A stretch of DNA of 64,000 bases from Candidatus Microgenomates bacterium (lineage in GTDB: Bacteria > Patescibacteriota > Microgenomatia > Daviesbacterales > UBA10151), in contig JACOYE010000008.1 of NCBI GenBank assembly GCA_016182045.1, forward strand, positions 502 through 64,501, written 5' to 3'. Numbering within the stretch: the stretch's first letter is position 1; the number at the start of each line of letters is the position of its first letter. Both the position numbers and the translations under genes were made by a program. This document shows, piece after piece, positions 3,285 through 63,148 of this stretch. The notes under the pieces are model-generated. The model had not been told where the DNA came from. It was given only the letters and a program-made list of their open reading frames with translations, and ran no database searches.

Positions 3285-3350
3285 GTCATCGCGAGGCTAC
3301 GAAGTAGCCGTGGCGATCTAATAAGATTGCTTCGCTACGCTCGCAATGAC
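3285..3350. repeat. intergenic GC-rich palindromic element (GTCATCGCGAG...CTCGCAATGAC), a member of the repeat family also found inside CDSs
   Basis: Imperfect ~66 bp palindrome with GTCATYSCGAG termini and an internal hairpin GGCTAC-GAA-GTAGCC. It is much more GC-rich than its surroundings. Confidence 0.6.
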
Positions 3351-7982: not shown

Positions 7983-9005
7983 TTACTCTATACCAACTAA
8001 ATATTTTTCTTTAAGGGCTTGGAGACTTGGAAAAGCATTTTGTCTCTTAATTCCTTTAAGGAGCTTCGCAGCATGTTCTACTTTTTCAGAAGGGAATCTA
8101 CCACTTTTTTCTACATACTCTTTAAATTGGGTATCAATTAAGCCTGAATGCGGATGATTGTCGCTTTGATAATTAACAGCGGCATGGAAATTATCAGACA
8201 AATGAGCATAAACCTCTTGAAAAACATCAGGATTGTGTTGTTCCAGAAAAACAAGTGCCTCTATTATTCTTCGTTGATGATGTAATAATGCCCCAGGCCC
8301 TCCTTCAACCACATAATCCAAATTTGTAGTCAATAGTTGTGGTATTAAAATACCAAGATCACTTGATAACTCAGTGGGCTGAATAATACTTAATCCCTGG
8401 ATATTCTGTACTAAATTTTCAGTATTAAATACTAAAGCTTCAGATACAATAAATCTTCTCTCTATATCCTTCTCTTCAAAAGAAGTTAAGGGTAAACCTT
8501 GTTCGGATCTGTATCTGTTCATACGTTCCCTATATGCTTGCATAAAACCTCTTGTCTCATCATAAAATTTTACTAACTTTGGGTCAGCTTTAAAGCGTCT
8601 TGCAAACCAGTATCTAAACGGAATATGCGAAGGATGAAATTCTTCAGAGGTTAGGGTAATTTCTTCAAACTCCCTATGTATTGGATTACCAGCAGATCTT
8701 TCTGCTAAACTACTATCGAATACAAGTATAAAATCAAAATCTGATCCTACACGGGCTGTACCACGCAAAAGCGACCCAACAGGGAATATCATTCCTTTTC
8801 TTTCTTTAAATTGCTCGATTATCTTAGGAGGAGACTCTTGATGTAACACTTCTCCGAAGTATTGGTGAAATCCCTCTAAAATTCCTACAGTAAACTCTGA
8901 TCTTGCTTCAGGCTTTCTTAAAGTGTTTATTACCTTATTAACCTGTCCTGCTTCGGGTGTATCTTCCATACAATGAGTATACCGAACTTTAGATCTTAAC
9001 ACCAA
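7983..9005 (-). CDS. pol-beta superfamily nucleotidyltransferase-fold protein (340 aa) of unknown function
   Basis: Minimal NTase motif GS-x10-DxD (GSLLRGTARVGSDFDFILVFD), a candidate third acidic residue about 55 aa downstream, and a ~200 aa helical C-terminal region. Confidence 0.55.
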   Translation of the reverse strand: MVLRSKVRYTHCMEDTPEAGQVNKVINTLRKPEARSEFTVGILEGFHQYFGEVLHQESPPKIIEQFKERKGMIFPVGSLLRGTARVGSDFDFILVFDSSLAERSAGNPIHREFEEITLTSEEFHPSHIPFRYWFARRFKADPKLVKFYDETRGFMQAYRERMNRYRSEQGLPLTSFEEKDIERRFIVSEALVFNTENLVQNIQGLSIIQPTELSSDLGILIPQLLTTNLDYVVEGGPGALLHHQRRIIEALVFLEQHNPDVFQEVYAHLSDNFHAAVNYQSDNHPHSGLIDTQFKEYVEKSGRFPSEKVEHAAKLLKGIKRQNAFPSLQALKEKYLVGIE

Positions 9006-9730: not shown

Positions 9731-9984
9731 ACATCTTCCTCTACTTTTAGAAGTTTGTCAAGACCTTTGGCACTTTTAGGCTCAGCATTAATCTCAAAAT
9801 GGGCATAAAAACCCTTGGCTTGTCTTTTGATTGGATATGCCAGATCTCTGATCCCCCAAAGATCTTCTTTTTCTACCTTGCCATCATCACCGGTTAGTTT
9901 TTTTACCACATTATCCACCAATACTTTGCGCTCCTTTTCCTCCAAATCCGGCTTTAAAACTAATGTTAAATAATATGAATTCAT
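9703..9984 (-). CDS. rpsF: 30S ribosomal protein S6
   Basis: MNSYYLTLVLKPDLEEKERKVLVDNVVKKL... fits the S6 fold. Confidence 0.85.
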   Translation of the reverse strand: MNSYYLTLVLKPDLEEKERKVLVDNVVKKLTGDDGKVEKEDLWGIRDLAYPIKRQAKGFYAHFEINAEPKSAKGLDKLLKVEEDVLRYLLIRR

Positions 9985-10027
9985 ATTTGGACAATTTTAC
10001 TAGGAAAGATCCGGGAATTCAATAGCT

Positions 10028-12759: not shown

Positions 12760-12917
12760 TTGACAAACTTGGAGATTTGTAGTAAAAAGGCCCTGACGGT
12801 AGCCAGAATATACAATCCGACTACTCGTTTACTTAACTTCATGTAGTTGGTAACCTGACTACCGCCACTAACATGAAGGCAGTGACATTCGGGTGGCGTG
12901 GACGCGCCACCTTTTTT
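12760..12917 (+). ncRNA. candidate small RNA (~120 nt): TTGACA-17-TAAAAA promoter, then a transcript ending in an intrinsic terminator (GGTGGCG-loop-CGCCACC plus T6)
   Basis: TTGACA at 12760-12765 and the -10 box at 12783-12788. The hairpin is at 12892-12911 and T6 at 12912-12917. No plus-strand CDS exists upstream that the terminator could serve. Confidence 0.3.
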
Positions 12918-14535
12918 AAACAGTCTCACCTAACTTATGAATTCCTAAAATCTCCTTCACTTTCCTTATTATAGCTTTTGAGGAAATCTCTTCATAATCC
13001 AAAAGCTCTTGTGGTTTACCGCTTTTGGGCATTTTTTTAACTGCCAGAGAATATATCTTCCTATTTTGATTTGCTAAAGCAGACGCAACTGCCTCTCCTA
13101 TTCCTCCCTCTTGAAAATGATCTTCCACAGTTATTAGAGCTTTTGTCTCATCTTGAGCTTTCTTAAGAGTATACATATCCAGTGGTTTAACCGAATAAAG
13201 ATCAATTACTCTAATTGTTATCCCCATCTTTTTTAACTGATCAAATGCTTGTAATGCTTCATAAACTGTAATCCCAGCTGCCACCACAGTAACCTTATCT
13301 TCCTGAGATTGTTTCAAAATTTTACTTCCACCAATGGGAAATTTTTCATCATTTTTATATAAAAGAGGCATTTCTTTTCGGGTGGTTCTGATATAGACAA
13401 TTCCCTTGTGTTTGGCTGCCTCTTCCACTAATTTTTCTGTTGAGGTAGCATCCGATGGGTATAAAACTACACTTTTCAAAAGTGTCCTGAACATGGCAAT
13501 ATCCTCAAGGCCCATCTGGGATGACCCATCTTCACCAATGGATACTCCGGCATGGGAGCCGACAAATTTAATATTGACTCCGGAATACTGACTCATCCGG
13601 ATTTGATCAAAGGCCCGGGTAAAAAAGGCGGCAAAAGTGGAGACAAAAGGAATCTTGCCCATCTGGGACAAACCGATTGCCACTCCCACCATATTCTGCT
13701 CGGCAATAAACATCTCAAAAAATCTCTCAGGATATGCCTTTTTAAAAATTTCTGAATAAGTGGAATTAGAAACCTCGGCATCTAAAACTACCATGTTAGG
13801 AAACTTGGGGAATATCCTTACCAAAGCATTTCCATAAGCCTTTCTTGTCGCCACCAGATCACCTTGAGCATATTTGACAGAGTCAGTATAATTTTTTGAA
13901 CCGACTCTGTCATCCCGAGCGACTCCGACGTAAGTCGGAGGAGTCGAGGGATCTGGCTCGGCAATTTTTCCACGCAACTTCACATCCATATTTCCCAGCT
14001 CCTTTAAAGCTTTCTCCAACTCCTCAGAATTCAGTGCCTTACCATGCCATCCGTTCCGATCCTCCAAAAAAGATATTCCCTTACCTTTAATTGTTTTGGC
14101 CACAATCACAATTGGTTTATCTTTTACTTTTTGAGCTTTTTTAAAAGCATCCATAATTTCCTTAAAATTGTGACCATTTATCAAAATAGTCTCCCATCCA
14201 AAAGCAGCAATTCTTTTTGAGTAAGCTTTTATATTATGACCATACATGGTCTGGCCTCTTTGGCCTAATCTGTTAACATCCAAAATACCCACCAGATTAT
14301 CCAATTTATAGTGGGCGGCAATTTGAATTGCTTCCCAGACAGCCCCTTCTGCCATTTCACTATCACCTAACAGTACATAGGTTTTGTAACCTGATTTATC
14401 AACGTACTTGGCATTTAATGCCATCCCCATTCCAATAGAAAGACCCTGCCCCAAGGAACCGGTGGCTGCCTCCGTATATGGGAAAAGCATGGTTGGGTGA
14501 CCCTCCAACTTAGAGCCGAATTTTCTTAAAGTCAA
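12916..14535 (-). CDS. tkt: transketolase main body (TPP, Pyr and C-terminal domains); the reading frame has no ATG and continues from the N-terminal fragment in another frame
   Basis: LEGHPT...GSLGQGL...VLLGDSEMAEGAVWEA (TPP-binding) and later a ...SQMGLEDIAMFR-like Pyr domain. An in-frame repeat insert lies at 13905-13958. Confidence 0.8.
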   Translation of the reverse strand: MTLRKFGSKLEGHPTMLFPYTEAATGSLGQGLSIGMGMALNAKYVDKSGYKTYVLLGDSEMAEGAVWEAIQIAAHYKLDNLVGILDVNRLGQRGQTMYGHNIKAYSKRIAAFGWETILINGHNFKEIMDAFKKAQKVKDKPIVIVAKTIKGKGISFLEDRNGWHGKALNSEELEKALKELGNMDVKLRGKIAEPDPSTPPTYVGVARDDRVGSKNYTDSVKYAQGDLVATRKAYGNALVRIFPKFPNMVVLDAEVSNSTYSEIFKKAYPERFFEMFIAEQNMVGVAIGLSQMGKIPFVSTFAAFFTRAFDQIRMSQYSGVNIKFVGSHAGVSIGEDGSSQMGLEDIAMFRTLLKSVVLYPSDATSTEKLVEEAAKHKGIVYIRTTRKEMPLLYKNDEKFPIGGSKILKQSQEDKVTVVAAGITVYEALQAFDQLKKMGITIRVIDLYSVKPLDMYTLKKAQDETKALITVEDHFQEGGIGEAVASALANQNRKIYSLAVKKMPKSGKPQELLDYEEISSKAIIRKVKEILGIHKLGETV

Positions 14536-31863: not shown

Positions 31864-33381
31864 TTATTCCCATTCCATTGTTGCCGGGGGTTTGGTGGTG
31901 ATGTCATAAACTACCCGGGAAACTCCTGGGACTTCATTAACTATTCTGGATGAGATTTTCTGCAAAATCTCATACGGCAGTTTAGACCAGACAGTTGTCA
32001 TCACATCTTTGGACTCAATAATTCTTACTGCCATAACTTCTAAGTGGGCCCGCTCATCCCCTTTGACAGCCGTACTTTTGGTATTTGTTAAAATTGCAAA
32101 ACTCATATAAACTTTGCCATAAAGCTCGGCTTTTTTGATTTCCTCTAAAACAACTGCATCTGCCTGTTGCTGTCTTTCCAAACGCTCCTTTGTTACCTCC
32201 CCAATAATCCTGATTGCTTGACCCGGACCTGGAAAAACTTGTTTGAAGACAACTTCTTTTGGTAACCCCAATTTTTCTCCAATTAACCTAACTTCATCTT
32301 TATAAAAATCCCGCAAGGGCTCAAGAAGTTCCAAGTTCATCTCATCAGGCAATCCCCCCACATTATGATGCGATTTAATCTTATCTGCTTTTTTGGTCCC
32401 TTTACTTTCAATCACATCAGAATAAATTGTTCCCTGGGCCAAAAACTTTACCCCTTTTAACTTTTTTGCTTCTCTTTCAAATAATTCTATATAGATTTTG
32501 CCAATGGTTTTTCTTTTTTCCTCCGGATCCGTAATACCTTTGAGGGCTGAAAGAAATTCCTTCTCTGCCTCAACAATGATCGGGGTAATTTTTAAATGTT
32601 TTTGGAAAATTTGTAAAACTTCCTCTTTAGTTCCTACCCTCATCAGTCCGCTTTCAATATAAATGGGATATAAATTTTTGCCAATGGCTTTTCCAATAAG
32701 AGTTGCTGCGACAGTTGAGTCAACACCTCCAGAAACAGCACAGATAATTTTGTTATTTCCCACCCTTTCTTTGATATCTTTAATAACCTTTTTAATATCA
32801 ATCTTTTTTTTGGAAATCTTAAGTCCGCAAATATTTTGGGCAAAGTTTATCAGTATTTCGTTACCAAAAACAGTATGATCTACCTCAGGATGAAACTGGA
32901 CCCCAAAAATCTTTTTGTCTAAATTTGCTACAGCTGCTGCTTTAACATTTTCAGTACTTCCCAAATATGTAAACCCTTTAGGAATAGTTACTACGCTGTC
33001 ACCATGACTGACCCAGACAATGGAATTATTCTCCACACCTTGTAGGATAATTCCTTCATTTATGATATTAAGATTTGCCGGCCCATATTCTTTATGTCCC
33101 CCAACTACTTTCCCTCCTAAAAGATGGGCAGTCAGCTGCCAACCGTAACAAATACCAAGAATTGGAATTCCCAAACTAAAAATTTTTTTATCAATAGTAG
33201 GGGCGCCTTTTGCATAAACAGAAGCCGGCCCTCCGGAAAGAATAATCCCTTTTGGCTTAAACTTCTTAATCTCGGAAAGAGCATCTTCAGGCTGGATAAT
33301 AGTCACAGCAATGCCGTGATCCCGCAACCTTCTGCCAATCAAATGACAAGTTTGTGATCCAAAATCAACTATAATAATCAT
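31864..33381 (-). CDS. guaA: GMP synthase (glutamine-hydrolysing)
   Basis: N-terminal GATase (IIIVDFGSQ...GICYG), ATP-PPase SGGVDSTV and C-terminal ...KPPATMEWE. Confidence 0.9.
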   Translation of the reverse strand: MIIIVDFGSQTCHLIGRRLRDHGIAVTIIQPEDALSEIKKFKPKGIILSGGPASVYAKGAPTIDKKIFSLGIPILGICYGWQLTAHLLGGKVVGGHKEYGPANLNIINEGIILQGVENNSIVWVSHGDSVVTIPKGFTYLGSTENVKAAAVANLDKKIFGVQFHPEVDHTVFGNEILINFAQNICGLKISKKKIDIKKVIKDIKERVGNNKIICAVSGGVDSTVAATLIGKAIGKNLYPIYIESGLMRVGTKEEVLQIFQKHLKITPIIVEAEKEFLSALKGITDPEEKRKTIGKIYIELFEREAKKLKGVKFLAQGTIYSDVIESKGTKKADKIKSHHNVGGLPDEMNLELLEPLRDFYKDEVRLIGEKLGLPKEVVFKQVFPGPGQAIRIIGEVTKERLERQQQADAVVLEEIKKAELYGKVYMSFAILTNTKSTAVKGDERAHLEVMAVRIIESKDVMTTVWSKLPYEILQKISSRIVNEVPGVSRVVYDITTKPPATMEWE

Positions 33382-34181
33382 TTTCCCTCCTTTGCAAACT
33401 TTATCATATCTTCAAATATAAAAGCTCCATGAGGTTTAATTATTTTCTCTCTTCTCCAGTTGGGGTATTGGGTAACATCAACAAACTTTTCCGGATGTGG
33501 CATCAATCCTAATACTCTTCCAGAAGGATCAGTCACTCCAGCGATAGCATTTAAAGATCCGTTTGGATTCTCAGGATATTTTTGTGTGGGATTGCCTTGC
33601 TCATCAACATACCTAAAAGTGACCAGATTCTCATCTTCAATTTTTTTAATAATTCCGGGACTAGAGAAAAATTTACCTTCTCCATGATTTACTGAAAACC
33701 AACCCACTTGATTATTTTCTTTTAAAAATACACAGTTACTTTTATTACTCTTTATTCTTACCCATCTGCATTCAAAATGTCCACTACTATTTGCGGCCAA
33801 AGTGGCATCCATTTTGCCTAAATTTCCAAAAGGCAAAAGCCCGGTTCTTATTAAAACCTGAAATCCATTACAGATTCCGATAATTAATCCCCCTCTTTTT
33901 CTAAAATTTTCTATTTCCTCTCTTAAAAAACTTACTAGCTCAATTGCCCAAATTTTTCCGGATGCCACATCATCTCCATAAGAAAATCCTCCAGGCAAAG
34001 CCAGAATATGAAAATCTTTCAGAGTTTTGGATTTGTTCCTTAACTCATTAACATGAACAAACTGTGGACTCCCCCCAAACTTTTTAAAAGCATAAAAAAG
34101 TTCATTATCACAATTAGTCCCATCAGATTGTAGTATACAAACATTTACTTCTCGCCCTGAGCGAAGTCGAAGGGTTTTCAT
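33378..34181 (-). CDS. purQ: phosphoribosylformylglycinamidine synthase glutaminase subunit (PurQ), with an 11-aa repeat-derived N-terminal insert
   Basis: GTNCDNE...LPGGFSYGDD class-I GATase. Residues 3-13 (TLRLRSGREVN) are encoded by a copy of the GC-rich repeat. Confidence 0.85.
   Translation of the reverse strand: MKTLRLRSGREVNVCILQSDGTNCDNELFYAFKKFGGSPQFVHVNELRNKSKTLKDFHILALPGGFSYGDDVASGKIWAIELVSFLREEIENFRKRGGLIIGICNGFQVLIRTGLLPFGNLGKMDATLAANSSGHFECRWVRIKSNKSNCVFLKENNQVGWFSVNHGEGKFFSSPGIIKKIEDENLVTFRYVDEQGNPTQKYPENPNGSLNAIAGVTDPSGRVLGLMPHPEKFVDVTQYPNWRREKIIKPHGAFIFEDMIKFAKEGK
34149..34175. repeat. GC-rich repeat copy (CTCGCCCTGAGCGAAGTCGAAGGGTTT) inserted in frame after codon 2 of purQ
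   Basis: Near-identical to the inner unit at 35891-35917 in purL; GC-rich relative to its flanks. Confidence 0.6.
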
Positions 34182-34825
34182 AAGTTTTTAATATCTTCTA
34201 TAGATAATTCATCAAATGCACTAATGACTCGATCAGCATTTTGCAGCTTATCTTTTGTCACACTTGTTGCTATGGCAATGCATTTCATACCTGCAGCTTT
34301 GGCTGCCTTTATTCCGCTTGGTGCATCTTCAATAACTAAACAGTCCGATGATGAAATTCCAAGTTTTTTAGAAGTTAACAAAAATATCTCAGGATTTGGC
34401 TTACCTTGTTTAACTTCATCACCTGAGACCACTGCACTAAATTTTTCCTTAATAGAAAGACTGCTGAGAATAATCGAGATAAACTTCTGGTTTGTTGAAG
34501 AAGCGAGTGCTAGGGGATATCCATGTTTTTGAAGTTTCTCAATAAGATCAAGTGAGCCTGGTACAAGAGGGATAGATTTATCCGAAAGTTTTTTATACAC
34601 TATTTCCCATTTCTTTTTTCTCAGTTTCTCAATATCTTTTATAAGATGGCGTTTTGCCATATCTTTAAACATCTCTGTATCCTTCCAGCCAGAGTAACTG
34701 TTTATTATTTCCTCAGGTGTTATATGAATTCCAATAGTGGCAAAGACTTGGCTTTCTGCCCCAGATTGAATCGCTTCTGTTCTGGTAATAACTCCATCCA
34801 TATCAAAAATTACTGCTTTAATCAT
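34178..34825 (-). CDS. HAD-superfamily hydrolase, subfamily IA (beta-phosphoglucomutase-like)
   Basis: DxDGV motif I (IFDMDGVIT) and motif IV (IEDAPSGIKAAKAAG). Confidence 0.75.
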   Translation of the reverse strand: MIKAVIFDMDGVITRTEAIQSGAESQVFATIGIHITPEEIINSYSGWKDTEMFKDMAKRHLIKDIEKLRKKKWEIVYKKLSDKSIPLVPGSLDLIEKLQKHGYPLALASSTNQKFISIILSSLSIKEKFSAVVSGDEVKQGKPNPEIFLLTSKKLGISSSDCLVIEDAPSGIKAAKAAGMKCIAIATSVTKDKLQNADRVISAFDELSIEDIKNL

Positions 34826-37695
34826 GGAAATATCTCTTTCATTGGCGCTTGCCAGGCTTGTTGTAATCTGTCCATATCAACTGTAAATAATCCATCAACC
34901 ACCAACTTCTCATCCTGTGTAGTTTTTCCTAATATTTTGTAAGGCACTCCTTCAAATAATTTTTTAGCAGTTGTCTCATTTTCAACTTCCATTACAAAAC
35001 ATCCAGCTGTTTCATTAAGAAGAAAACCACCTCGAAGGTGGGCTTTCTTGTCCCGAGCGAAGTCGAGGGAGACTCCTTCGAGGTGAAGCCGAACCCCACA
35101 ATTTCCGCCAACACACATTTCAAAAATGGTTGTAATCAGGCCTCCTTCTGAAACATCATGGCATGCTAATACTTTTCCACTAACAATTGCTTTGTGCACT
35201 TTATCCAAAACCTTCGGTAAAACTTTCAAATCAACTCTGGGGATGCTACTTTCCAAATCCTGCTTACCAACCAGTACAATTGTTGACCCAGCTTTTTTAA
35301 AATCAGAAGAAACAGTTTTTTTAACATCAGGAATTTTGCCAAATACAGACATGCAAAGTGTTGGAGGACTGTGTATCACCACCCCACTAGAGCCACGATA
35401 TGTGGCAGATAAACTGTCTTTGCCAGAAATCACCGGAATCTTTAAAGTCTTCATAAAATCACAAACAGCATCTACTGATCTATCAAGCGACCACAACCAT
35501 TCTTTATCAGGAAACGGCCAAATATAGTTATTAACCAGCGATGCATCTTTGTAATTACCACCAACTGCCACATAATTAGAAATTGCCTCAGTTGCAGACC
35601 AGACACTTCCCCAATATGGATCCATCATGCTAAATTCAGGATTTAATCCATGAGAAACAACCATTCCATAGGGTTTATCCAAAAGCGGCTTAATTACTGC
35701 TGCATCATTTGGCCCATCCATTCCCACCCCTGCAAAAGGATGCAAAGCATTTGTTCCCTGAACATTATGATCATACATCCTCAAAATTGGCTCTTTTGAA
35801 TTAATATTTCCATTAGCTAAAACTTTCTCTAAAACCTTCGCCCAAACCATTTTGTCATTCCGAGCGATTAGCGAGGAATCTCTCAACTTGCCCGCCCTGA
35901 GCGAGGCCGAAGGGTTTGAGATACTCACATTCGTCAGAGATTCTTCACTTCGTTCAGAATGACGAGGAGAGATAGCTCTCATCACCCTTTGTGGCAATCC
36001 TTCAAACAAAAAACTCATTTCCAAATCTCCCACTTTTTCTTTTCCATAAAATACCTGTAATCTTTTACTGCCGTCAAACTCTGCAATCTCTGAAGCCTGG
36101 ACATTATATTTTTGACATATCTTTAAAAATTCTTTCAGATTATCTTTTGAAAGAATTATTAACATTCTTTCTTGAGATTCTGAAAGGAAAATTTCCCAAG
36201 GAGCAAGTCCTTGATATTTCAAGGGTGCCTTTTCCAAATGAACAGTCGCTCCAGTTTTTACTCCCATCTCACCAATAGCAGATGAAAATCCACCAGCTCC
36301 CAAATCTTGAACTGCCCTTATTAAATCTTTATCCCGCGCTTCTAAAATTGCATCAAATACTCTTTTTTCCTCAATTGCATTTCCAATTTGCACAGCTTGG
36401 GAGTTAACTTCCATGGTTTTTTCACTCATCTCAGCAGAGGAAAAAGTGGCTCCGTGTATTCCATCTCTTCCCGTCCTTCCTCCGATAACCACCCCTACAT
36501 CACCAATTTTTGGATAGCCTTTTTTAGCTTTACTTTTAGGTAAAATTCCATATGATCCAACCAGTACAATTGGTTTGGCTCGAAAATCCTCATGAAAATG
36601 AAATGAACCATTATTTGTAGGTATCCCCACTCTATTGCCATAATCCCTAACAGCAGCCACTACTCTTTTTAACATATAGTCAGGAGGCAATGTCCCGGCA
36701 GGTAATTTACTTTTATCTAAATCATAAGGAGCAAGACAAAAAATATCTGTTGATACCAAACTTTTTGCGCCCTGGCCTGTTGCTACCACATCTCTAAAAA
36801 CTCCACCAGATCCAGTCATTGCCCCACCATATGGTTCTATTGCAGAGGGTGCATTATGAGTTTCTGCTTTTCCATTAATTGCCCAACCTTCATAAAAATC
36901 CATCACCCCTGCATTGTCCACAAACGCTGAGACAATATTTTTGTTATGTTTCAGCGCTTCCTTTTTAATTCTTTCAAAAAGCGGTGCCTTGTTTTTCCCA
37001 TCAACTAAAAGTCTTGCTTTAAAAGTTTTATGAGCACAATGTTCACTCCAAGTTTGGGCTAGAGTCTCAAGTTCTAAATCTGTGGGATCTCTTTTTATCT
37101 TTTGAAAATAATTTTGTATCACTTTCATCTCTTCTAAATTTAAAAACAACTTATCTTTTGAAAGTTCTAATAGCTGTTCATCATTGATCCGCCTTAGGCG
37201 GATAATATTCGTTTTTGCAGGAATGTCTTTGATAAGAAGAGTCTTTTGTTTCTCCTTCACAAAATGCTCAACCATTTCATTAAGAAGATGCAATTTCCTG
37301 GCAATATCCTCTATCTCTTGATGTGTTACTTTTCCATAAAAGCCATATTCATGAGAGGAGTCAGCTGCAATAAGTTTAATTCCCAAATCCTCTGCAGTTT
37401 TAAGAATTGACCCAACTTCTGGATTCATTACACCTGGTCTGTAAGCAATCTCTATAATCTGATTTGCTCCTTTTATTATTGGAGAGTTTAAAGTATATTC
37501 CTGATAAATACCTTCACAAAAAACTGTCTCCGCTAAAACTTTTGCCTCTCTCTCGCTTACACCTTCCAATCTATAAACTTTGGCAGTCTCCACTTTTGTG
37601 ATGTTTTTGATTCCCATCTGATAAATGTCATTTAAAACTCCCTCACCAATCAGGTCTTTTCCCATAACATTTTTTACTCTGATTATATGTATCAT
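34822..37695 (-). CDS. purL: phosphoribosylformylglycinamidine synthase large subunit (PurL) with a ~185-aa N-terminal extension of PurS-like modules and two repeat-derived in-frame inserts
   Basis: Core PurL motifs (WSEHCAHKTF, GGRTGRDGIHGATFSS, AIGEMG). The N-terminal region resembles PurS twice. Inserts lie at 35854-35963 and 35049-35095. Confidence 0.85.
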   Translation of the reverse strand: MIHIIRVKNVMGKDLIGEGVLNDIYQMGIKNITKVETAKVYRLEGVSEREAKVLAETVFCEGIYQEYTLNSPIIKGANQIIEIAYRPGVMNPEVGSILKTAEDLGIKLIAADSSHEYGFYGKVTHQEIEDIARKLHLLNEMVEHFVKEKQKTLLIKDIPAKTNIIRLRRINDEQLLELSKDKLFLNLEEMKVIQNYFQKIKRDPTDLELETLAQTWSEHCAHKTFKARLLVDGKNKAPLFERIKKEALKHNKNIVSAFVDNAGVMDFYEGWAINGKAETHNAPSAIEPYGGAMTGSGGVFRDVVATGQGAKSLVSTDIFCLAPYDLDKSKLPAGTLPPDYMLKRVVAAVRDYGNRVGIPTNNGSFHFHEDFRAKPIVLVGSYGILPKSKAKKGYPKIGDVGVVIGGRTGRDGIHGATFSSAEMSEKTMEVNSQAVQIGNAIEEKRVFDAILEARDKDLIRAVQDLGAGGFSSAIGEMGVKTGATVHLEKAPLKYQGLAPWEIFLSESQERMLIILSKDNLKEFLKICQKYNVQASEIAEFDGSKRLQVFYGKEKVGDLEMSFLFEGLPQRVMRAISPRHSERSEESLTNVSISNPSASLRAGKLRDSSLIARNDKMVWAKVLEKVLANGNINSKEPILRMYDHNVQGTNALHPFAGVGMDGPNDAAVIKPLLDKPYGMVVSHGLNPEFSMMDPYWGSVWSATEAISNYVAVGGNYKDASLVNNYIWPFPDKEWLWSLDRSVDAVCDFMKTLKIPVISGKDSLSATYRGSSGVVIHSPPTLCMSVFGKIPDVKKTVSSDFKKAGSTIVLVGKQDLESSIPRVDLKVLPKVLDKVHKAIVSGKVLACHDVSEGGLITTIFEMCVGGNCGVRLHLEGVSLDFARDKKAHLRGGFLLNETAGCFVMEVENETTAKKLFEGVPYKILGKTTQDEKLVVDGLFTVDMDRLQQAWQAPMKEIFP
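35049..35095. repeat. GC-rich repeat copy in frame near the PurL C-terminus (encodes ..GVRLHLEGVSLDFARDK..)
   Basis: TCCCGAGCGAAGTCGAGGGAGACTCCTTCGAGG; its core matches the 34149-34175 element. Confidence 0.5.
35854..35963. repeat. composite (nested) GC-rich palindromic element in frame in purL, adding about 37 aa (ISPRHSERSEESLTNVSISNPSASLRAGKLRDSSLIARNDK)
   Basis: Outer termini are GTCATTCCGAGCG...CGTTCAGAATGAC. The inner unit CGCCCTGAGCGAGGCCGAAGGGTTTG matches the purQ copy. Confidence 0.65.
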
Positions 37696-62662: not shown

Positions 62663-63148
62663 TTAGCTCTTTTCTAGTTCATAGAATTTATATCTTAAGC
62701 CTTCATGTTCCTGCCAGTCTGATTCAGAAACTACTTTTTTAAATTCTGAATAATCTGGAAAAAACACTTCCCCTTCTATTTCTTTATCTATATAAGTTAA
62801 ATATAGCTTATCAGCCAACTTGATGGCTTCCTGATAAATCTGCCCGCCACCAATAATGAATATTTCATTATTGCCCGAAGCGTTCTTTGCGAGTCGAAGG
62901 GCTTCTTCTAAACTATGAGCCACCTCACAACCTTCTGCTTGATAGTTTGGTTCACGAGTTACCACTATATTTGTTCTTCCCGGCAATGCTCGACCAATGG
63001 ACTCATGGGTTTTCCTTCCCATAACAATGGGGTGTCCCATGGTAATCTCTTTAAATCTTTTTAACTCCTCGGGTATATACCAAGGTAGCCCCCCTTTTTT
63101 TCCAATAATTCTTTTCTTACCAGCCACAGCAACTATGATGCTAACCAT
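62663..63148 (-). CDS. folA: dihydrofolate reductase
   Basis: IIVAVAGKKRIIGKKGGLPW...GRKT...IIGGGQIY. Confidence 0.85.
   Translation of the reverse strand: MVSIIVAVAGKKRIIGKKGGLPWYIPEELKRFKEITMGHPIVMGRKTHESIGRALPGRTNIVVTREPNYQAEGCEVAHSLEEALRLAKNASGNNEIFIIGGGQIYQEAIKLADKLYLTYIDKEIEGEVFFPDYSEFKKVVSESDWQEHEGLRYKFYELEKS

Follow-up and report, generated by a model that had tools for sequence, protein, structure and literature searches.

A 24-nt copy of a small GC-rich repeat stands in frame directly behind the start codon of purQ in a 64,000-nucleotide stretch of a Candidatus Microgenomates genome (contig JACOYE010000008.1; this whole stretch is called the window below), and it adds eight residues to the glutaminase subunit of phosphoribosylformylglycinamidine (FGAM) synthase. 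Variants of the same repeat occupy this junction in other lineages, where they are read in different frames. We think it likely that a tiny selfish repeat, akin to repetitive extragenic palindromic (REP) sequences and Rickettsia palindromic elements (RPEs), was inserted here as DNA and is now translated and tolerated at a permissive PurQ N-terminus. An initial annotation of the window had proposed that a repeat gave rise to an in-frame insertion immediately after the start codon of purQ, and the presence of its 27-mer, the profile copies and the comparison of filled with empty sites all bear this out.

An in-frame repeat copy at the start of purQ

The purQ gene (33378..34181, minus strand) encodes a protein of 267 aa that is matched by the family model TIGR01737 (NCBIfam; 194.6 bits against a cut-off of 177.8, residues 13-237) and by PRK01175 (residues 11-264, E = 5e-72). 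An NCBI protein of 'Candidatus Microgenomates bacterium' from a metagenome-assembled genome (MAG) matches it at 100% identity. The gene begins MKTLRLRSGREVNVCIL and the protein MKTLRLRSGREVNVCILQSDGTNCDNE; on the gene strand the start region reads ...AAAAACTT ATG AAA ACC CTT CGA CTT CGC TCA GGG CGA GAA GTA AAT GTT TGT ATA CTA. Translation of purQ gives MK followed by TLRLRSGREVN, just as the initial annotation had it. The insertion itself is shorter than those 11 residues, which had been counted against a generic PurQ: relative to the nearest orthologues, which begin MK(K/Q)VNVCIL, it amounts to 24 nt or 8 codons (267 versus 259 aa; MK-TLRLRSGR-EVNVC), and EVN is native. The filled site of the window, ATGAAA[ACCCTTCGACTTCGCTCAGGGCGAG]AAGTAAATGTTTGT, can be set beside the empty sites ATGAAAAAGGTCAATGTTTGT (locus L003) and ATGAAGATTGTGAATGTTTGT (L136, in which the upstream gene encodes a HAD-family hydrolase as in the window).

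The insert spans 34151..34174 on the minus strand, where the gene strand CCCTTCGACTTCGCTCAGGGCGAG, flanked by an A on either side, encodes TLRLRSGR. It matches the repeat profile with E = 1.6e-7, and its G+C content is 67%, compared to ~37% for the window. The 27-mer CTCGCCCTGAGCGAAGTCGAAGGGTTT has a single exact occurrence in the window, at 34151-34177 on the plus strand (antisense of purQ); its letters were given correctly, and the position, first reported as 34149-34175, moves 2 nt to the right. This 27-mer had been taken to code for all of TLRLRSGREVN, and it encodes K-TLRLRSGR only.

The insert is coding, because no in-frame start lies downstream of it, a stop codon lies upstream and the position of the ATG is fixed by an overlap with the preceding gene. 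Inspection of the sequence between the purQ ATG and Val14/Cys15 found no in-frame ATG, GTG, TTG, CTG or ATH, in agreement with what had been noticed before, and an in-frame TAA occurs 9 nt upstream of the ATG. The overlap is an ATGA (34178..34181, minus strand) in which the purQ start codon (34179-34181) shares nucleotides with the TGA stop (34178-34180) of a HAD hydrolase gene. These observations refute a placement of the element in a 5' untranslated region (UTR). A shorter PurQ that lacks the insert could be made only at the cost of beta-strand 1. The 5-10 nt before the ATG contain no good match to a Shine-Dalgarno sequence, so purQ is probably initiated by termination-reinitiation.

The enzyme behind this N-terminus is intact. 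Both the nucleophile motif GICNGFQ (Cys104) and HPE (His229/Glu231) are present, and G102, C104, N105, G106, F107, Q108, H229, P230 and E231 are invariant among 38 aligned orthologues, which upholds the earlier statement that the frame and the catalytic Cys region are preserved. In an AlphaFold2 model, residues 1-11 form a low-confidence coil and strand 1 starts from residue 12. In the large PurL, which is a single chain, an inter-domain linker takes the position homologous to the PurQ N-terminus (query residues 8-242 aligned with residues 1044-1280 of 1T3T).

The insert is not an assembly artefact, because three independent short-read assemblies agree on it with 100% identity over window positions 34103-35057. 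These three Logan contigs (L220-L222) stop at 35054-35057, inside a repeat unit in purL, and their opposite ends fall at 34103-34107, in a stretch of purQ that is conserved between species. The shared end points suggest branching of the assembly graph, caused by strain variation or by k-mers common to other genomes.

One DNA motif read in three frames at one junction

We compared the 120 closest PurQ orthologues (70-86% identity). The majority, 102, start MK(K/Q)VNVCIL and are 258-259 aa long, and 18 carry an insert at this exact junction; the comparison thus supports the insertion and sets its length in the window at 8 residues instead of 11. The inserts read TLRLRSG(R/Q)E, PIRQAQGK(Q), THSTR(FA)RSGQD or IIPSLRSGLVSSKE. 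At the DNA level, the TLRLRSGR, PIRQAQGK and THSTRSGQ types are a single motif in its three forward frames, with small compensating indels. Because different lineages use different frames, it is the nucleotide motif that is shared and not the peptide.

All of the junction inserts begin 0-3 nt past the ATGA that ends the upstream gene. Of the six distinct junction sequences with an insert that we obtained as DNA, five stay in frame, with insert lengths of 24, 24, 27, 24 and 45 nt, each a multiple of three and free of stop codons; the insert of L010 is a partial tandem duplication. The sixth (L144, ~9920-10000) is a 66-nt variant interrupted by a stop codon in frame. The old ATG now serves a mini open reading frame (ORF) of 22 codons, which overlaps the purL stop at its start and a new purQ start (GTATGA) at its stop, so that two ATGA overlaps follow one another. 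A new start of this kind is the expected outcome for an element that enters as DNA, with translation adapting afterwards.

Carriers of the insert are scattered, and the nearest relatives (85-91% identity) of most carriers lack it. The occupancy of the junction may stem from recurrent insertion, from one old insertion followed by many precise losses, or from exchange of alleles by recombination. Other permissive sites have been struck repeatedly by different repeat families, namely a linker in purL, a loop in purL and the GuaA loop after 'VxPE' (L003, L007, L171).

The surrounding operon is compact. In the window, purL, the HAD-family hydrolase gene (34178..34825, minus strand, with 4-nt ATGA overlaps at both ends), purQ and guaA are linked by 4-nt overlaps, as part of a series of four in succession that extends from the gene upstream of purL through guaA. 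Most relatives lack the HAD gene, and in them purL overlaps purQ directly; L136 has one HAD gene before purQ and a second after it (42% and 36% identical to the HAD protein of the window). At least 91.5% of the window is coding. In a genome so dense in coding sequence and overlapping genes, a site just 3' of an upstream stop codon lies inside the next gene.

A conserved loop within a variable stem

On the plus strand, the purQ copy consists of the stem CCCT, the loop GAGCGAAGTCGA and the stem AGGG (34155..34174), that is, a 4-bp stem around a 12-nt loop. In its general form on this strand, a stem that is short and variable encloses the conserved loop GAGCGAAG(Y)CGA (gene strand: CCCTTCGACTTCGCTCAGGG). 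The loop can also be written GAGCGAAGYCGA, with a variable stem of 4-6 bp and a unit of ~24 nt. A small profile of the motif matches the window three times, each time in purL-purQ (34148-34176, 35889-35916 and 35045-35070), with E = 1.6e-7 for the purQ copy and 3.2e-6 and 2.1e-5 for the other two. A match to the 27-mer with 3 mismatches lies at 35891-35917, where shuffled sequences lead one to expect 0.00. A GC island at 62873-62902 that seemed related turned out to be native DHFR sequence.

The loop is conserved and the stem covaries. In the window the stems are CCCT/AGGG (purQ), TCCC/GGGA (purL) and ATCCC/GGGAT (transketolase gene). Related DNA from the candidate phyla radiation (CPR), 553 kb in all, contains the loop 8 times, versus ~0.4 times in shuffles, and complementary stems adjoin it in 7 of these 8 cases. 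In 1.31 Mb of match loci from other phyla, a perfect stem of at least 4 bp was found in 33 of the 47 units that had not been picked by the search pattern. Ten other stem sequences occur at these loci, and the rate of stems in controls is 0.5%.

Two of the three window copies reside in purL (34822..37695, minus strand; 957 aa; TIGR01736, E = 2.2e-149). Both are in frame, and both insertions are visible in an alignment with five orthologues of 883-928 aa. The larger one, in the purL linker, is an imperfect palindrome of 111 nt (35854..35964, minus strand) that is translated as RHSERSEESLTNVSISNPSASLRAGKLRDSSLIARNDK and carries the core copy 35893-35917 at its tip. Its arms are of the GTCATTCYGARCGA...GGAATGAC type, and the composite begins with CGTC. 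The predicted RNA fold is strong (-46.8 kcal/mol, z = -4.2, a stability that none of 200 shuffles reached), as is the DNA fold (z = -4.3). In this linker each orthologue has a different GC-rich, repeat-derived sequence (PSVAQGLRQ, HLRGARVTSEVAVGLLRGG, HPERAKRIEG).

The second purL insertion has 15 codons and encodes SLDFARDKKAHLRGG (35026..35085, minus strand); among the 11 orthologous purL sequences compared, only that of the window contains it. It holds the unit TCCC-GAGCGAAGTCGA-GGGA at 35051-35070 between the inverted arms CACCTCGAAGG and CCTTCGAGGTG (35075-35085 and 35028-35041). We considered an inverted duplication of the target for this insertion and rejected it, as the arms belong to a separate family of 13-nt palindromes (CACCTCSGAGGTG) that is also found in relatives. 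That family (CACCTCGAAGGTG / CACCTCSGAGGTG) is enriched in the related genomes, with 17 copies at 8 loci versus 0.26 expected, and L139 (~8560-8640) has two copies at the corresponding purL loop.

Distribution of the core beyond Microgenomates

Exact matches to the 21-mer CCCTTCGRCYTCGCTCAGGGC occur in at least 120 stretches of species-representative genomes, compared to a rough expectation of ~1 for a random 21-mer in 596 Gb, or a few tens when GC-rich genomes are allowed for. Acidobacteriota predominate among the matches listed, which also come from Patescibacteria, Saccharibacteria, Curtissbacteria, Chloroflexota, Cyanobacteria, Planctomycetota, Verrucomicrobiota, Bacteroidota, Gemmatimonadota, Nitrospirota, Alpha- and Gammaproteobacteria, Actinomycetota, Bacillota and Spirochaetota. 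Sequenced isolates that carry the core include Edaphobacter aggregans DSM 19364 and Sphingobium strains. Matches extend to 39 IMG/VR viral contigs and a few plasmids, as well as to Nostoc and Anabaena contigs and cyanobacterial plasmids.

The flanks of these matches are unrelated to one another. AGGC(TC) frequently comes after the core, which also often stands between GTCATYCYGAGC and GCTCRGRATGAC termini, and Sphingomonas loci show inverted doublets of it. Inverted repeats of at least 7 nt flank it in 20 of 106 cases (8 of 106 controls), a modest enrichment; the idea that the core always sits at the tip of a hairpin was dropped because it does so in a minority only. In low-GC genomes, whose ORFs are trustworthy, 13 of 18 copies that could be scored are extragenic. 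The clearly intragenic copies among them are from Saccharibacteria, Curtissbacteria and one Chloroflexi MAG. The genes that house these encode a ComM-like ATPase, a DNA ligase with GTLRLRSGQARD and an MFS transporter, and here, as in GuaA and a PurM-like protein, the repeat falls in linkers or loops. Intragenic copies in genes as remote from purines as those of the ATPase, the ligase and the transporter weaken the case for a purine-specific regulatory motif.

On the Sphingomonas plasmid NZ_CP155752.1 (L180, 1215-1535), a small GIY-YIG nuclease gene ends ALRLRSGRTRE* and overlaps the start of the next gene, and its C-terminus is the repeat core in the frame used by the window PurQ. We discarded this nuclease as a partner gene after tblastn recovered 2 loci only. 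A link to IS91-family transposases was likewise discarded: the Trichlorobacter plasmid core inside a transposase gene appears to be another intragenic copy and not the end of an element. An analysis of k-mer enrichment in related loci was of little use, dominated as it was by conserved coding sequence.

A proposed origin and the points that weigh against it

We propose that one copy of a small GC-rich stem-loop repeat entered as DNA between codons 2 and 3 of purQ, behind the ATGA. Ribosomes would read through the insert, because no other start codon is available. PurQ would thereby gain TLRLRSGR, a flexible and positively charged tail in front of beta-strand 1 that should leave the glutaminase fold and the catalytic triad untouched. 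The insert would then persist because the site tolerates it and not because the peptide is useful, as selfish or neutral DNA. We infer from these patterns that the unit moves at the DNA level, that its copies are neutral and that a filter for permissive sites shapes where they are seen. Another explanation for the location could be that the junction lies just 3' of a stop codon, the usual home of REP-like elements in roomier genomes.

Several points weigh against this account. The copy number is low, with three core copies in 64 kb, all of them intragenic, and the 12 profile matches in 553 kb of related DNA are mostly at the purQ junction by ascertainment. The window copies all fall within 1.8 kb of the pur operon, for which we estimate P ~0.002 if they were placed at random. 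Comparison of filled with empty sites reveals no flanking arms, terminal inverted repeats or target duplication at the purQ copy. No transposase or RAYT gene was identified in the 64-kb window, whose ORFs were not screened against Pfam. Additionally, the insert is identical at 25 of 25 positions between the window and L001, two genomes in which purQ is 80% identical overall and 64% at third codon positions, and GuaA 59%. This identity hints weakly at constraint on the nucleotides, recent independent arrival or recombination; it is only mildly improbable, because purQ contains other identical runs of 17-47 nt.

The structure of the purQ copy bears on the same question. The start region folds at -6.7 kcal/mol, with z = 0 to 0.4 as RNA and -0.7 to -0.9 as DNA, which is not beyond shuffles, and Rfam returned nothing relevant for the whole window at the gathering threshold or for 33900-36100 at E up to 10. 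Folding lends no support to the earlier suggestion that the insert could alter translation initiation. The GCGAAGC mini-hairpin in DNA has a Tm of 76.5 C that standard thermodynamic models do not explain (PMC13037366). Since standard parameters miss mini-hairpins of this type, the structure of the purQ copy may be underestimated, which also counts against our account. The loop GAGCGAAGCGA in L009 and L172 holds the exact GCGAAGC heptamer; the window copies depart from this canonical heptamer and read GCGAAGTC. By analogy, formation of a mini-hairpin may have a role here, and we regard this as a lead.

A bolder version of the proposal, which we consider conceivable and rather doubtful, is that the ~24-nt unit is itself actively mobile and among the smallest such units known. 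It might cross phyla, possibly with phages, and prefer hairpin tips and stop/start junctions by way of a single-stranded DNA or RNA intermediate of a host or phage enzyme. If this were true, the purQ junction of Microgenomates would be a natural assay for recurrent insertion.

Alternatives to a tolerated selfish repeat

The best-surviving alternative, which we regard as unlikely, is that the element is a functional cis signal in mRNA or DNA, either a hairpin that blocks independent initiation and so couples purQ to the upstream gene, or a stability or regulatory signal of the purine operon. Its position exactly at the ATGA coupling junction would suit such a role, as would the clustering of the three window copies in purL-purQ and the 25/25 identity between distant genomes. 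In the L001 fold, moreover, CCUUC of the relatives' element can pair with GAAGG of a Shine-Dalgarno sequence inside the 3' end of purL, and stems that covary across phyla imply that pairing is selected for at some point in the life cycle of the element. However, the predicted folds of the start region are unremarkable (z = 0.32 at -6.7 kcal/mol in the window and z = 0.5 in L001), 102 of the 120 orthologues manage without the insert, and indels set the variants apart, with lengths from 24 to 66 nt. The core also occurs in unrelated genes and, in other phyla, mostly between genes, and it belongs to no Rfam family. The copies in pur genes of relatives reflect ascertainment, as the loci were sampled around purQ.

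A selected protein feature, in which an Arg-rich tail would dock PurQ to PurL/PurS or bind nucleotide or RNA, is very unlikely. The tail is positively charged with three Arg, the frame is kept at five of the six distinct insert-bearing junctions, and eight orthologues share the TLRLRSG(R/Q) reading. Against this, other lineages read PIRQAQGK or THSTRSGQD, whose chemistry is different, and most orthologues are tail-free. The same repeat yields the peptide in the DNA ligase loop and at the GIY-YIG C-terminus, and the tail is modeled as a low-confidence coil.

It is scarcely tenable that the element stays untranslated, whether in a 5' UTR ahead of a downstream start or bypassed or removed in the manner of gene 60 or the mitochondrial byp elements. 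The L144 junction does hold an untranslated or separately translated version, and a GC-rich island in an AT-rich gene has a superficial likeness to mitochondrial GC clusters and byp elements. Yet no in-frame start precedes the conserved strand, and a later one would remove beta-strand 1. Bypass elements have no need of a frame, whereas five junction inserts are stop-free multiples of three and the sixth is accompanied by a new ATG. Finally, an artefact of assembly or sequencing, or else a chimeric join, has a virtually negligible chance: GC-rich hairpins and repeats are prone to misassembly and the source is a MAG, but three independent runs give an identical junction, orthologous frame-keeping inserts occur in many unrelated metagenomes, and the core is found in the sequenced isolates named above.

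Other repeats and neighboring features

A nested hairpin related to the unit, GTCATCCC-GAGCGA[CTCCGACGTAAGTCGGAG]GAGTCGA-GGGATCT, lies in frame in the transketolase gene (13909..13954, minus strand; gene 12916-14535). It is translated in the linker that joins the two halves of a fused transketolase, and its fold has z of about -1.8 to -2.0. An intergenic GC-rich hairpin, GTCATCGCGAGGCTACGAAGTAGCCGTGGCGATCT (3285-3319), is located between two convergently ordered minus-strand genes in a terminator-like position and has a GTCAT... head in common with the intragenic elements.

The first loop of GuaA, after VxPE, bears repeat-derived inserts that differ between L003 (10870-10925), L007 and L171 (KPFDLAQGGQVQDD, SRFRGNDRRRSGNDK and LRFTQDDK). 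GuaA of L171 has a further insert in its inter-domain linker, and GuaA of the window has none. Between guaA and purA, L007 (14759-16135) displays the signature of a diversity-generating retroelement (bAvd and a reverse transcriptase) together with an rve-family transposase.

PurL of the window has an N-terminal extension (residues ~24-135) with weak similarity to PurS (PRK06423, residues 81-135, E = 3e-6), and this extension also aligns to the N-terminal part of large PurL models. From these alignments, the protein may be a fusion of PurS and PurL. Nearly all 2-kb bins of the window have a negative GC skew (cumulative -5.0), and the great majority of the 60 ORFs of the working set lie on the minus strand, a marked strand asymmetry.

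Implications for compact genomes

PurQ itself is probably unaffected, an intact enzyme to which eight disordered residues have been added. More broadly, the case illustrates that in CPR genomes, where intergenic space is all but absent, small selfish repeats reside inside the genes, in linkers, loops and termini. Such intragenic repeats inflate and diversify CPR proteins and can mislead annotation and alignment. A core that recurs nearly letter for letter in many phyla and in viral contigs, within covarying stems, calls for an explanation, either as a mobile mini-element or as a structure recognized by a conserved enzyme. Because variants of the repeat occupy one junction in many lineages and in three frames, they provide a comparative system for the movement of the element and the adaptation of translation to it.

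Comparison with known systems

Searches of the literature by sequence string and for intragenic repeats of CPR bacteria found no description of the element, which is not proof that none exists. The systems that it most resembles are compared with it here. Translational bypass and byp elements differ in that the purQ inserts keep the frame and are stop-free, and the one that bears a stop has a new ATG. MITEs (miniature inverted-repeat transposable elements) such as Correia/NEMIS and ERIC are also short non-autonomous repeats that can lie in frame in genes. Unlike them, the purQ insert has neither terminal inverted repeats nor a target-site duplication, and typical MITEs are several times longer than its 24 nt.

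Small dispersed repeats (SDRs) of Nostocaceae are closer in size. Elhai et al. (2008) reportedly described them as 'very small mobile repeated elements' of 21-27 nt that nest in repeats or hairpins and undergo compensatory stem changes. Compared by description only, our element is alike in its dimensions (insert of 24 nt, core of ~21-25 nt), in nesting and in the changes of its stems. Its core is spread over many phyla, which argues against membership, as SDRs are reported to be confined to Nostocaceae. The SDR work is cited in PMC5861425 and PMC3116915.

REP sequences and their doublet form, REPINs, are GC-rich stem-loops of 20-40 nt that are mostly extragenic and sometimes intragenic. The inverted doublets in Sphingomonas and the CGTC at the start of the purL composite recall this group. 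The purQ copy, with its 4-bp stem and 12-nt loop, does so less certainly: stems covary across copies, and the single copy is no more stable than shuffles in an energy model that may miss GA-rich mini-hairpins. The purQ copy is a singlet and carries no GTAG or CGTC tag; GTAG, CGTC, CTAC and GACG are all absent from 34131-34200. High copy number and a mostly extragenic location, both typical of REPs, are not seen in the window, where there are three copies, all intragenic. Here the loop is conserved and the stem variable, whereas REP families are defined by conserved stems. Intragenic REPs are commoner at the N-termini of ORFs than at their ends, and many of them are perhaps extragenic in reality (PMC3733652); the N-terminal purQ copy, in contrast, is demonstrably coding.

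RPEs offer the nearest parallel in behavior. According to Ogata et al. (2000), these palindromic elements are said to lie in frame in Rickettsia genes and to be translated as extra surface segments that do not destroy the host protein. Both cases involve selfish in-frame repeats in a small AT-rich genome at sites that spare the fold, and the 111-nt purL element fits well, having the long hairpin of ~100-150 nt that marks RPEs (z = -4.2). The host differs, being a member of the Microgenomates and not a Rickettsia. The purQ copy differs further in its 24-nt length, without palindromic arms or a significant fold, and in its low copy number, with a core that occurs in many phyla rather than one genus. 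RPE-4 and RPE-6 have themselves been equated with CGTC-tagged REPs (PMC3733652). The element rises above a routine case through the tiny size of its unit, its conservation across phyla with covarying stems and its repeated occupancy of a single stop/start junction in three frames.

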